Both the position numbers and the translations under genes were made by a program. Of a stretch of 64,000 nt of DNA, positions 60,833 through 64,000 are shown in pieces. Source of the DNA: a virus (lineage: Duplodnaviria > Caudoviricetes); the IMG/VR virus record IMGVR_UViG_3300025789_000018, one strand, 5' to 3'. The notes under the pieces are model-generated. The model was not told where the DNA came from. It saw nothing but the letters and a program-made list of their open reading frames with translations, and ran no database searches. Numbering within the stretch: position 1 is the stretch's first letter; the number at the start of each line of letters is the position of its first letter.

Positions 60833-61411
60833 GTGATGAGTGCTTTTGATAATATTACCAAGAAGATCGCTGAAAAGAACTCTGAAATCGATGCGCTTAA
60901 GAAGGCGTACATGAAGGAACTTCAGTCGTCATTCAATGAAATCATCAAGTTGTTCTTTGAGGAATGCCCCAAGGTTCAGGCTGTTGTTTGGTCGCAGTAC
61001 ACTCCATACTTCAACGATGGTGAAGAATGTGTATTCAGCATCAACGAACCGCATTTTATTGTTGAAGGCTTCGATCCTGATGATCTGAAGGATCCTTATG
61101 AATACGAAGATGATGATGAATACAAGACTTTGCAGTATAGCAGTTATCAGACTCTTGAAGAAATCCTGATTCGTTATAAAAATGAACTTGCTAAGCCACA
61201 TGTAAGCGATTGGGTTAAAGGATACTATCCAACGTATATTGCTCAAGTCGAAAAGCAGTTTGAAGAATTTCCTGAATACCACAATAAGATTTTGACGTTT
61301 GTTAAGTTGCTGAACGATAATGAAGATGTACTGCAGGAAGTCTACGGCGATCACGTTGCTGTCTACCTGACTCCAGAAAAGGTTATCGTTGAGGAATATA
61401 GTCACGATTAA
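60833..61411 (+). CDS. Conserved hypothetical protein
   Basis: WSQYTPYFNDGEECVF. Confidence 0.7.
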   Translation: MMSAFDNITKKIAEKNSEIDALKKAYMKELQSSFNEIIKLFFEECPKVQAVVWSQYTPYFNDGEECVFSINEPHFIVEGFDPDDLKDPYEYEDDDEYKTLQYSSYQTLEEILIRYKNELAKPHVSDWVKGYYPTYIAQVEKQFEEFPEYHNKILTFVKLLNDNEDVLQEVYGDHVAVYLTPEKVIVEEYSHD

Positions 61412-61446
61412 GGGTTGACATTTTTAGCGAATCGTATATAGTGGGA

Positions 61447-61518
61447 ATATAGAGAGCGAACGAGTGGTCTTTCGCAGATTGGCAGTCGCCTAAGTGGACC
61501 TCGCTCTCATATTTTTTT
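61447..61518 (+). ncRNA. Candidate small RNA / attenuator hairpin
   Basis: Starts just after promoter 61415-61442; GAGAGCGA/TCGCTCTC plus GGTC/GACC stems, then a T-run. Confidence 0.45.
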
Positions 61519-61529
61519 GGAGATTCGCT

Positions 61530-61745
61530 ATGAAAGTTTTTGGTGCTGCTCTGTTCATTTTCGGCGGTCTTCTGATTGCTGGTTCTGCCAGTGCTGATGA
61601 TTACTGGGAAGCATGTCGCCACGCTGTAGATTGTGTTGCAGGTGATCCTCCCAGTGGTCTAGTACAAATCGCTGAGTTGACTTTTGGATTGATCTTTGCT
61701 ATCGTTGGATGTCGTTTTCTGATGCTTGGCTTTGATCAAGACTAA
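61530..61745 (+). CDS. Small membrane/secreted protein
   Basis: Signal-peptide-like N-terminus and C-terminal TM; GGAG SD. Confidence 0.55.
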   Translation: MKVFGAALFIFGGLLIAGSASADDYWEACRHAVDCVAGDPPSGLVQIAELTFGLIFAIVGCRFLMLGFDQD

Positions 61746-61769
61746 TAAATATATCTATTAGAGGAGGTC

Positions 61770-61937
61770 ATGATGTTGGTTAAGCAGTATTCTCTACCTA
61801 CTTTTAAACAAGGATATCGTGCTATCTCCAATACACGAAGCGAACTTATGAAACGATATCGTGCTGGTCAGAAGTTGGATGTCGAAGAGAAAGACTGGCT
61901 GGACTGGTCTGATATCGCGCTGGATCAAACTAACTAA
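61770..61937 (+). CDS. Small hypothetical protein (55 aa)
   Basis: GAGGAGG SD; MMLVKQYSLP... Confidence 0.55.
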   Translation: MMLVKQYSLPTFKQGYRAISNTRSELMKRYRAGQKLDVEEKDWLDWSDIALDQTN

Positions 61938-61944
61938 GCTTTAT

Positions 61945-62023
61945 GCGCTGGTATGCCGCCTGACTTCTAATCAGGAGAAAGCTAACTGGACACATGGGGG
62001 TTCGAATCCCTCCCAGCGCGCCA
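61945..62023 (+). tRNA. tRNA-Arg(UCU)-like RNA lacking a D-arm, with D-loop-like sequence in the variable region
   Basis: GCGCTGG-TATGCCG-CCTGA-CTTCTAA-TCAGG-AGAAAGCTAACTGGACACAT-GGGGG-TTCGAAT-CCCTC-CCAGCGC-G-CCA. Confidence 0.7.
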
Positions 62024-62051
62024 GATTCTATATTCAATATTTCTTAGGGCT

Positions 62052-62261
62052 TTGATTATGATTGAAGGGTTGAACTTATGTATTCGAAGCACCGAAACTA
62101 TCAATAAAGGCATGGGCGGAAGAGATATGCCTTTGTATTATCTTAAAAAGTGTAAGACTGCACTTGAAGTTGCGACAGTCGCATTAGAAGAAGCATATGC
62201 TTCTGATGATGCAACAGAAATGCGACATATCATTTCTAATGCTCTGGAAGCTTTAAAGTGA
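62052..62261 (+). CDS. Hypothetical protein whose last 21 nt overlap a tRNA
   Basis: 69-aa ORF between tRNAs. Confidence 0.45.
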   Translation: MIMIEGLNLCIRSTETINKGMGGRDMPLYYLKKCKTALEVATVALEEAYASDDATEMRHIISNALEALK

Positions 62262-62314
62262 AGCCAGCCGCTCATAACGGCTAGAAGGCGGGGCAGTACC
62301 GTCACGGAGTACCA
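62241..62314 (+). tRNA. tRNA(CAU) (Ile2 or Met) with non-canonical elbow
   Basis: GCTCTGG-AA-GCTT-TAAAGTG-AAGC-C-AGCCG-CTCATAA-CGGCT-AGAA-GGCGG-GGCAGTA-CCGTC-ACGGAGT-A-CCA. Confidence 0.75.
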
Positions 62315-62331
62315 AAAAAGAAAGTTTGTAA

Positions 62332-62408
62332 GGACCCTTAGCTTAGTAGGCTAAAGCATTCGACTTTTAATCGAAAGATCCTGGGTTCGAGTCCCAGAGG
62401 GTCCACCA
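62332..62408 (+). tRNA. tRNA-Lys(UUU)
   Basis: Canonical cloverleaf; TTCGA-CTTTTAA-TCGAA; CCA. Confidence 0.95.
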
Positions 62409-62571
62409 AACTAAGTGAAGGTAATTTATGATCAAGATCATACTTGTTGTGATGTTAATTTCGGTTGCAATAGCTATCATCAACGGTATATGTGATAAGG
62501 ATGATAATACTGCTGGTTGGAGTTAGCAACAAGGATACTGGTGAAAATCCAGGCGGGTCCACCAATTTAAT

Positions 62572-62646
62572 GCGCGATTAACTCAGCGGTAGAGTGCTGT
62601 CCTGACTCGACAGATGCCGGAAGTTCGATCCTTCCATCGCGCACCA
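62572..62646 (+). tRNA. tRNA-Val(GAC)
   Basis: Cloverleaf; CTGTC-CTGACTC-GACAG (U37 atypical); CCA. Confidence 0.9.
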
Positions 62647-62649
62647 ATA

Positions 62650-63231
62650 TTATTGTGAAACTCTAAAAGCAGAACTTACACCCAAGGTAAACTTGTGTTC
62701 GCTATAGCCAATGTCAAACTGTAGATTCTGTTTCTTAGGTGGAACCCATGAAACATAGATGCCAGTTTTGACCTTTGTGTCATAGTAGACAGAAGGCATG
62801 ATTGTAAGTGTATCTGTTGGTGTAAAGTTGTATTCAGTCACATATGTCTGTGAATGTTTAGCAATCTGAACATCTGTACCAAAGTAAAAGTATTTGTTAA
62901 AAACATACTTTGATGGCACTTCAATGAAAACACCATTGTTATTATCGTATCCTAGCTTGGCTGATAAGTCAAACTTGTGATTATAAATGATAGCATACTT
63001 TGCACCAAAGCTGGTGTTATCTTTGGATACTTCTAAGTCCTTTGCAATAGCCATTCTAAACTCATAACCATCAGTACCTATTTCAGCCTGAAAAGTTTTA
63101 AGTGGAATGACGTCAGCATCGATACCTACGCCTGGTCTATCAGCATTGATCTGTTGATCTTCCGCGAGTGCTGGAGCAGAGAACAGAAGTGTTAGTGCTA
63201 CTATTACTGCTTTTGTTCTACGTAGCCACAT
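62650..63231 (-). CDS. Putative outer-membrane beta-barrel protein
   Basis: Signal peptide ending PALA; I.ADRP..P..FQ.E.G like MetA-pathway/phenol-degradation barrels; alternating beta pattern. Confidence 0.55.
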   Translation of the reverse strand: MWLRRTKAVIVALTLLFSAPALAEDQQINADRPGVGIDADVIPLKTFQAEIGTDGYEFRMAIAKDLEVSKDNTSFGAKYAIIYNHKFDLSAKLGYDNNNGVFIEVPSKYVFNKYFYFGTDVQIAKHSQTYVTEYNFTPTDTLTIMPSVYYDTKVKTGIYVSWVPPKKQNLQFDIGYSEHKFTLGVSSAFRVSQ

Positions 63232-63566
63232 CCTGCTTTGTCCTCATGGAGTGATGTTAGTTCGACATGCATTGCTTTGATTTCAGCAAACTCGGCCAAG
63301 ATCGTTTCGTGATCTTGCTGGCTTCTAGCTTCTGTCTTTCTGGCTTGAACTTCTTGACCTACCATGATTACACTAAGTAGAACTAGTTGAAGAAATGTCT
63401 GTGCGATCCATGAGATTGTAGCTGCAAGCCCAGCGTGAATAGCGTCTGGTAGACTGATTAGAGCCAACAAAGCAAACGCATAAGCACACCACATGGTGCC
63501 TACTGTATCTGTAAGGGTCACTGCAACCATGTCGTTGAACTTAGTGATGTTATCTTTGATAGACAT
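63204..63566 (-). CDS. DUF1003-like membrane protein
   Basis: GTMWCAYAFALLALISLP..WIAQTFLQLVLLSVIMVGQ. Confidence 0.65.
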   Translation of the reverse strand: MSIKDNITKFNDMVAVTLTDTVGTMWCAYAFALLALISLPDAIHAGLAATISWIAQTFLQLVLLSVIMVGQEVQARKTEARSQQDHETILAEFAEIKAMHVELTSLHEDKAGCGYVEQKQ

Positions 63567-63611
63567 GATTATACTCCCTTTTTATTATTATTTATGATTT
63601 AGAGAGTTTGT

Positions 63612-63696
63612 GCGGGCGTGGGGGAATTGGTAGACCCGCGAGACTTAAAATCTTGTTGCTTCGGCAGTGCTGGTTCGATTCCAGTCGCCCGTACCA
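63612..63696 (+). tRNA. tRNA-Leu(UAA)
   Basis: Class II cloverleaf; CTTAAAA loop; TGC-TTCG-GCA variable arm; CCA. Confidence 0.95.
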
Positions 63697-63712
63697 AATA
63701 AGTAACGAATAC

Positions 63713-63786
63713 TGCCCTTTCGTCTAATGGTAGGACCACGCCCTTTGAAGGCGTTAATCTTGGTTCGAATCCAAGCGGAGCATCCA
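63713..63786 (+). tRNA. tRNA-Gln(UUG)
   Basis: ACGCC-CTTTGAA-GGCGT; TTCGAAT; CCA; two acceptor-stem mismatches. Confidence 0.88.
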
Positions 63787-63795
63787 AAGTTTAAA

Positions 63796-63826
63796 GGGGA
63801 GTAGTTTTGCTACTCCCCCTTTTTTT
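63796..63826 (+). terminator. Intrinsic terminator, possibly bidirectional
   Basis: GGGGAGTAG/CTACTCCCC stem followed by a T-run. Confidence 0.8.
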
Positions 63827-64000
63827 ATTTACGGATTGTCCAAGCGTCTGTAGCTAACTTGGGATCTTCTAGATATCTTGCTGGAATCCAGAAGTGGCCA
63901 TCGTCGCCCCAGTCTGTTCCCCAAGAGTTGCGTACTTCATAGTATGGTTCTACTTTACCATCTGCACCATGCGCACTAGGATCAAAGTTATTATCATAAC
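63825..64000 (-). CDS. Papain-like (C1) cysteine peptidase, C-terminal end only
   Basis: YD...YYEVRNSWGTDWGDDGHFWIP. Confidence 0.8.
   Translation of the reverse strand, partial: YDNNFDPSAHGADGKVEPYYEVRNSWGTDWGDDGHFWIPARYLEDPKLATDAWTIRK

Follow-up and report, generated by a model that had tools for sequence, protein, structure and literature searches.

The window (the whole 64,000-nucleotide stretch of viral DNA that was analysed) contains, at positions 61945-62023 of its + strand, what reads directly as a tRNA-Arg(UCU)-like gene in which a D-stem strand and the D-loop lie 3' of the anticodon arm. The window, with a GC content of 40%, carries genes for a T4-type DNA polymerase approximately 50% identical to the enzymes of cyanomyoviruses, for DnaB-like and other helicases and for an SbcC-like protein, and belongs to an uncultured T4-like phage of fresh water. 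The gene starts 7 nt past the stop of a 55-aa ORF and is followed on the same strand, within 1.8 kb, by genes for tRNA-Lys, Val, Leu and Gln identified by ARAGORN. This program called seven ordinary tRNAs in the window, none of them a tRNA-Arg, and called no tRNA at 61945-62023; AGA represents 26% of the Arg codons of the window ORFs. No RNA run was listed for the long stretch, and a shorter query gave shares of at most 0.14. A putatively tRNA(CAU)-like region at window 62241-62314, which overlaps the end of ORF 62052-62261, was recognised as a tRNA neither by ARAGORN nor by Rfam (E<=10); in one relative (L010), an ordinary tRNA-Met(CAT) gene is found about 85 nt downstream of the permuted gene.

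The elements of the gene are as follows, with tRNA position numbers given as the equivalents that we propose:

61945-61951, + strand: acceptor stem 5' strand, positions 1-7, 7/7 pairs with 62013-62019
61952-61954, + strand: UAU, presumably U8, A9 and the U opposite U13 (position-22 equivalent)
61955-61957, + strand: strand h, GCC, equivalent of the D-stem 3' strand 23-25, pairs with 61980-61982
61958, + strand: single nucleotide G joining h to the anticodon stem, presumed equivalent of position 26
61959-61975, + strand: anticodon arm, 5-bp stem (61959-61963 with 61971-61975, 5/5) and 7-nt loop CTTCTAA
61966-61968, + strand: anticodon UCU (TCT in DNA) by direct reading, which reads AGA
61976-61979, + strand: spacer AGAA between the anticodon stem and h', presumably position 44 and a 3-nt bulge
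61980-61982, + strand: strand h', AGC, equivalent of the D-stem 5' strand 10-12, covaries with 61955-61957
61983-61990, + strand: D-loop equivalent UAACUGGA, matched by family conservation to U13 A14 A15 C16 U17 G18 G19 A20
61991-61995, + strand: connector CAC, then A (A21 equivalent) and U (U48 equivalent), directly 5' of the T stem
61996-62012, + strand: T arm, 5-bp stem (61996-62000 with 62008-62012, 5/5 including one G.U) and loop TTCGAAT
62013-62019, + strand: acceptor stem 3' strand, positions 66-72, pairs with 61945-61951
62020-62023, + strand: discriminator G73 and encoded CCA, by direct reading

Many features of a canonical tRNA are present, namely a closed 7-bp acceptor stem, a 5-bp/7-nt anticodon arm with U33 and a purine at 37, and a T arm with a TTCRANY loop. 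The stem lengths are standard (7/5) and it is the order that is altered. The D hairpin expected between positions 9 and 26 is missing, with only 7 nt (61952-61958) from the acceptor stem to the anticodon stem, and strand h continues via 61958 directly into the anticodon stem; the region between the anticodon and T stems extends over 20 nt (61976-61995) and contains AGCTAACTGGA. Direct reading therefore bears out the original prediction, made from the sequence alone, of a 7/7 acceptor stem, a 5/5 anticodon stem, a T arm and G73-CCA, together with a 7-nt 5' linker and a 20-nt region that holds a D-loop-like motif. The Rfam model RF00005 matches the gene with 40.9 bits (E 1.5e-6), over the gathering score of 29, and the cmscan alignment deletes 15 model positions corresponding to the D-arm and inserts 17 nt in the variable region.

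The original prediction had proposed a search for homologues with the same order, and relatives proved plentiful: at least 118 genes have an identical order of elements, 102 of them in an alignment termed A3 and 16 more, drawn from IMG/VR viral contigs and cultured phages and recognised with the covariance model R1. Members were collected by BLAST, by two pattern scans of IMG/VR and by a descriptor script (at least 94 distinct genes), and R1 was built from A2, an ungapped alignment of 25 sequences. Members score from 40.9 to 92.6 bits with R1, and those outside the seed from 40.9 to 84; the window copy has 92.6 bits, a score that is partly by construction as this copy belongs to the seed alignment. 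Ordinary tRNAs score at most 27 bits for those of the window and at most 36 bits for bacterial tRNA-Arg(CCT). Of 100 member loci, 66 have at least three other tRNAs; an encoded CCA is present in 52 of 94 members, and about a quarter of the members have U73, which is unusual as an Arg discriminator.

Using BLAST, the first matches were obtained in Streptomyces phage TunaTartare (anticodon TCG) and Microbacterium phage Zooman (ACG), where the copies are unannotated, lie in tRNA arrays and adjoin ordinary tRNA-Arg genes. Later BLAST searches identified the permuted gene in phi92-like coliphages, Mildred21 and A3Wally, and Antha is also among the cultured carriers found in this way, with TunaTartare, Zooman and phi92. 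Model R1 added Agrobacterium phage Atu_ph04, Limnohabitans phage DC31, Stenotrophomonas phage SOVA965, Salmonella phage SSBI34 and Alishewanella phage Slicko01. BLAST matches in Salinibacter and Gordonia phages cover the last 25 nt only, so these phages were not retained as members.

The family is found almost only in viral sequence. In a set of prokaryote genomes with one genome per species, two members (L170 and L210), both on short MAG contigs, were recognised among the first 100 of 120 pattern matches, and the other 98 were ordinary tRNA-Arg(CCT) or chance matches. No member was detected in 151 sampled genomes of one class, in a search of limited sensitivity that scored 31 candidates for each genome. 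The L170 gene (88-162, - strand), on a 5-kb contig of a Rhizobiaceae MAG, is aligned with one nucleotide too many in the anticodon loop, so that TCT lies in a loop of 8 nt; either the alignment or a true variant of the loop could account for this. Three genes (L062:37-112, - strand; L210:3918-3991; L264:385-460) form a divergent subgroup, which when aligned to R1 has mismatched pairs in helix h and in the outer anticodon stem; the helix around the anticodon arm seems to be in another register in these genes. The 10-kb contig that carries one of them was assigned to a Nitrosotalea (archaeal) MAG.

The family is large and gene finders mostly miss it: ARAGORN called 4 of approximately 118 members, with wrong 5' ends. 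GenBank labels the permuted gene as tRNA-Phe(gaa) in Mildred21 (L019:1001-1076), as tRNA-Ser in Slicko01 (L264:385-463) and as tRNA-OTHER in Antha (L022:995-1073), and has no feature at that of phi92 (L018:995-1076).

According to alignments A2 and A3, the acceptor, anticodon and T helices all covary. The acceptor stem has compensatory changes at all 7 pairs and is 99.6% paired, the T stem is 99.4% paired, and the anticodon arm combines covarying stem pairs with U33 (102/102), A37 (102/102) and C35 (99/102), the three exceptions at the last position being members with Ile anticodons. A fourth covarying helix joins nucleotides 4-6 of the linker (strand h) to the three nucleotides that precede a conserved UAA 3' of the anticodon arm (strand h'). 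In A2, which was not fitted to structure, its two outer pairs are formed in 25/25 sequences, as CG, GC or AU. In the 102 sequences of A3, pair 1 is 98% paired (CG 72, GC 14, AU 10, UA 4), pair 2 is 100% paired (CG 42, GC 35, UA 15, AU 10) and pair 3 is mixed and 79% paired, with a recurrent C.A exception that is found in 21 of the 102 members. Sixteen distinct strand combinations occur. With the strands fixed by position and by the UAA motif, not by pairing, 93.6% of cells are paired, whereas 2000 shuffles average 47% and reach 56% at most. The window copy is of the C.A type, with two pairs formed (G61955-C61982 and C61956-G61981) and a C61957.A61980 mismatch.

The proposed helix h/h' has a comparative basis. 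Both the single-sequence fold and RNAalifold return the three standard arms and omit helix h, the energy of which averages about -0.5 kcal/mol, a roughly neutral value that neither supports nor excludes it. Two other pairings had been suggested from the window sequence, and both fared poorly in A2: for CCG with TGG, 57% of cells are paired with no compensatory change, and for ATG with CAT the G:C pair is kept in 10/25 sequences and the two A-U pairs never vary informatively. The junction of h and the anticodon stem is always exactly one nucleotide across the family, and this 26-equivalent faces the first spacer nucleotide in a mostly non-Watson-Crick combination (G/A, C/U, A/A), like 26-44 of ordinary tRNAs; the spacer has the consensus N-G-A-A(-A), and 8 nt in the phi92 type.

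The presumed equivalents of the nucleotides that hold the core of a tRNA together are highly conserved. In A3, the equivalents of U8, A9, U13, G18 and A21 are found in all 102 members, A14 and G19 in 100 and A20 in 97, position 15 is A in 99 and G in 3, the third linker nucleotide is U in 88 of 102, and the T-loop is nearly invariant, the conservation of the letters UAA, GGA, AU and GGTTCGA being partly by construction, as both IMG/VR patterns demanded them. Free of this bias are the covariation of the helices, U8/A9, the anticodons and the exceptions at the 15/48 equivalents; the pattern-free subset is small (11 genes and the isolates found by BLAST). The combination at the 15/48 equivalents is A/U in 99 members and G/C in the other 3, without any mixed case, and the three G/C members (two in L079 and one in L117) were found by the model as neighbours and not by the patterns, which require A/U.

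These data point to a core that is a non-circular permutation of the cloverleaf, with segment 10-21 moved behind position 44. The chain would run from the acceptor strand 1-7 through U8, A9, [22-25] and 26 to the anticodon arm 27-43 and to 44 with its GAA(A) bulge; then through [10-12], U13 A14 A15 Y16 U17 G18 G19 A20, a connector of 2-3 nucleotides, A21 and U48; and finally through the T arm 49-65 and the acceptor strand 66-72 to G73 and CCA. The D-stem would become a 3-bp helix that encloses and continues the anticodon arm, and the usual L-shape would be rebuilt if the relocated GG docks on the T-loop, A15 pairs with U48 and U8 pairs with A14. In the structure of yeast tRNA-Phe, 10-25 carries 26-44 stacked on it, A21 is placed on the layer of U8-A14, adjacent to that of 15-48, and A9 is a neighbour of 22-23. 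Because of this packing, the new junctions 9->22, 44->10 and 21->48 would all join neighbours of the canonical structure, which is probably what a viable permutation would need. Both the L-shaped fold and this mapping onto canonical positions are predictions drawn from comparative sequence data. An internally permuted tRNA with GG-A kept 3' of the anticodon arm, as had been proposed from the window sequence, is now supported by a large covarying family.

A tRNA-Arg that decodes without adopting the canonical L is an unlikely alternative, in which h would simply lengthen the anticodon arm and the relocated loop would form another kind of elbow or stay flexible. Such a fold would suit a helix as short and thermodynamically marginal as h, and mitochondrial and engineered tRNAs without a D-arm do work with flexible cores (PMC7609411, PMC11551756); however, the near invariance of U8, A14, G18, G19 and the T-loop and the covariation of positions 15 and 48, which is that of a Levitt pair, are constraints that a flexible fold without an elbow leaves unexplained.

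Concerning the decoding role of a permuted tRNA with a rebuilt L, 99 of the 102 genes of A3 have an Arg anticodon (TCT 57, ACG 20, TCG 12, CCT 9, CCG 1) and three have an Ile anticodon (GAT 2, TAT 1). The identity set of bacterial ArgRS comprises A20 after G18G19, C35, U36 or G36, and A or G at 73. The window copy has ArgRS-type features, with C35, U36 and, after GG, an A at 61990 that would be equivalent to position 20. The nucleotide after GG is U in two of the three Ile members, and among the 11 pattern-free genes it is A in 8/9 with an Arg anticodon and U in 2/2 with an Ile anticodon, so that its tracking of Arg versus Ile agrees with the part that A20 is known to play in recognition by ArgRS. 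The Ile members (L042:10605-10681, GAT; L052:2428-2504, - strand, GAT; L055:5506-5582, TAT) all have A73; they sit within an Arg subgroup and share its helix type, which suggests a switch of anticodon and identity inside the family.

The relation of permuted genes to ordinary ones is also informative. Of 29 arrays in which ordinary tRNA-Arg genes accompany permuted ones, 3 have an anticodon that occurs in both forms, compared with a mean of 12.2 in shuffles (P about 5e-5), and all three overlapping arrays belong to a single lineage of Microbacterium phages. This overlap below chance indicates that the permuted genes fill decoding slots. The Arg set is completed only through permuted genes in L009, L052, L034 and L117. 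Three permuted Arg genes with three anticodons lie close together in L009 (1178-1539, - strand), L079 (8183-8420, - strand) and L034 (3917-5578); an ordinary tRNA-Arg adds a further anticodon in L009 and L034, and none was found in the available part of L079. In Zooman, A3Wally and a relative (L002:1360-1582; L020, L021), ordinary and permuted tRNA-Arg(ACG) genes occur together, at about 70 nt from each other in Zooman.

The permuted tRNA would be transcribed with the downstream Lys, Val, Leu and Gln array and then processed at both ends; the arginyl-tRNA synthetase of the host would charge it, probably through the A after GG and C35, and it would read AGA codons in translation. The translation machinery of E. 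coli takes even a tRNA without a D-arm with no adaptation (PMC11551756), which makes acceptance of the milder permutation plausible. The reading that we favour, at a probability of roughly 80% and from sequence comparison, is that this freshwater T4-like phage encodes an elongator tRNA-Arg(UCU) that works and has a permuted core and a rebuilt L-shape.

It is quite unlikely that the RNA is a mimic or decoy that does not decode and that misleads a tRNA-directed nuclease, a sensor of uncharged tRNA or a tRNA-binding defence protein. Phages counter anticodon nucleases with tRNAs of their own, a general precedent for such a role. A decoy would also agree with the near confinement of members to viral sequence (2 in the first 100 of 120 prokaryote matches and 0/151 genomes) and with the ordinary and permuted ACG genes that Microbacterium phages hold side by side. 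However, a decoy has no need for anticodons complementary to those of the ordinary tRNA-Arg of its array (3/29 against 12.2), for A37 or an A after GG that tracks Arg and Ile, nor for N73 with an encoded CCA or a perfect, covarying 7-bp acceptor stem. A decoy for tRNA-targeting defences, which had been considered from the window sequence, is accordingly disfavoured by the complementary anticodons, the maintained acceptor and anticodon-loop features and the frequently encoded CCA.

If the permuted gene is a decoding tRNA-Arg, its rewiring might itself be adaptive, a doubtful possibility in which the needs of ArgRS, EF-Tu and the ribosome would be kept and a feature that an attacker needs would be removed. 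Candidates for this attacker are a host nuclease or defence system for which the D-arm of ordinary tRNA-Arg is the recognition feature and, acting on DNA, a homing endonuclease with ordinary tRNA-Arg genes of rival phages as its cleavage targets; the latter would explain both the confinement to phages and the frequent HNH, EndoVII or GIY-YIG neighbours. In several cultured phages, a gene with an HNH or endonuclease VII annotation stops 1-7 nt upstream of the permuted tRNA or begins immediately downstream; the neighbours of this kind are the following:

L001:996-1505, HNH/EndoVII neighbour
L019:565-999, HNH/EndoVII neighbour
L020:632-994, HNH/EndoVII neighbour
L260:1-391, HNH/EndoVII neighbour
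L263:497-856, HNH/EndoVII neighbour

Among metagenomic members, Pfam searches found HNH in 1 of 26 upstream ORFs and, for 40 downstream ORFs, about 9 matches (HNH families, Endonuclease_7, GIY-YIG/SegE, DUF559), some of which perhaps concern the same ORF; these counts cover permuted members alone, and we claim no enrichment.

The gene itself is real and conserved in its freshwater T4-like phage. Near-identical copies are found on five IMG/VR contigs from different samples, and at least 19 metagenome runs of fresh water, belonging to 19 studies dated 2012-2017, contain the gene stretch. Contigs from four runs not marked as the source have 16 differences from the window, all of which are in the upstream flank or are G62020A, and none of these contigs varies within 61945-62019. 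Position 62020 is a G/A polymorphism between lake populations, and the tRNA body is under purifying selection, as the flanks vary and the body does not. An assembly artefact, which the original prediction had left open, is contradicted by these runs and by the absence of any difference within the tRNA body. A decayed tRNA pseudogene or an assembly artefact could account for the missing ARAGORN call and for the lack of a D-arm in its usual place and is nevertheless highly improbable, given an identical gene in at least 19 runs of many studies, compensatory changes that affect all four helices among at least 118 relatives, and a gene body that stays invariant while its flanks vary. Other contigs from the same lakes match just the middle of the gene (window 61951-61985) and then diverge into other T arms and flanks, so permuted tRNA-Arg variants of other phages share these samples.

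The closest known system is the canonical class I tRNA-Arg (RF00005; for example E. coli argU and phage T4 tRNA-Arg(UCU)), with which the permuted tRNA-Arg shares the 7-bp acceptor stem and the 5-bp anticodon and T stems, U33, C35, A37, TTCGAAT, N73-CCA, U8, A14/A15/G18/G19/A20, an Arg anticodon and a position in phage arrays. By contrast with the canonical tRNA, the D-stem strands of the permuted gene flank the anticodon arm, there is no D hairpin between 9 and 26, and the D-loop runs into the T stem in place of a variable loop. [quoted passage not shown]

Other RNAs with an unusual segment order are known. The circularly permuted tRNA genes of Cyanidioschyzon merolae (Soma 2014, as cited in PMC10085705) also depart from the cloverleaf order: the 5' half is encoded after the 3' half, and an ordinary tRNA is regained by processing via a circular intermediate, according to the same citation. 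Unlike these, the phage gene has terminal acceptor strands, its permutation is internal and the covariation fits the encoded order. Non-circularly permuted self-cleaving ribozymes were described by Eckert et al. 2023 (PMC10085705; the hammerhead, as cited in PMC11472068), and formally the rearrangement is the same, an internal segment being moved while neighbours in three dimensions are kept. The passages of PMC10085705 that deal with permutation of natural RNAs state that no earlier non-circular permutations were known and report no permuted tRNA. Allo-tRNAs, or 8/4 and 9/3 tRNAs (Mukai et al. 2017, PMC5389517), are also non-standard, occur partly in phage clusters and are missed by standard finders; they keep the cloverleaf order and alter the stem lengths, and the permuted gene does the reverse. 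YrlA and the bacterial Y RNA mimics of tRNA (RF02553; PMC11472068) are also tRNA-shaped, with a permuted strand order, and are found in phages. The Y RNA module is circularly permuted, has no end that can be aminoacylated and binds Ro60 (PMC11472068), whereas the acceptor end of the permuted gene is open and has CCA; Rfam gave no match to RF02553 in 61000-64000 at E<=10.

To our knowledge, the order of cloverleaf segments has been treated as invariant outside mitochondria. No description of a tRNA with a permuted core was found in the freely available full-text literature that was searched; a 2020 review of non-canonical natural tRNAs (PMC7609411) mentions neither phages nor permutation, and the allo-tRNA paper PMC5389517 contains no such architecture. 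The gene of the window is a new member of an undescribed and widespread variant of tRNA architecture, and its sequence makes a working tRNA-Arg(UCU) very probable. With cultured carriers such as phi92 in E. coli, the function of permuted tRNAs can be tested directly. If these tRNAs are charged and used, they would represent a natural non-circular permutation in a central RNA and would offer a new scaffold for the design of orthogonal tRNAs, and the tRNA repertoires of phages, with the codon-usage arguments that are built on them, would have been systematically undercounted.
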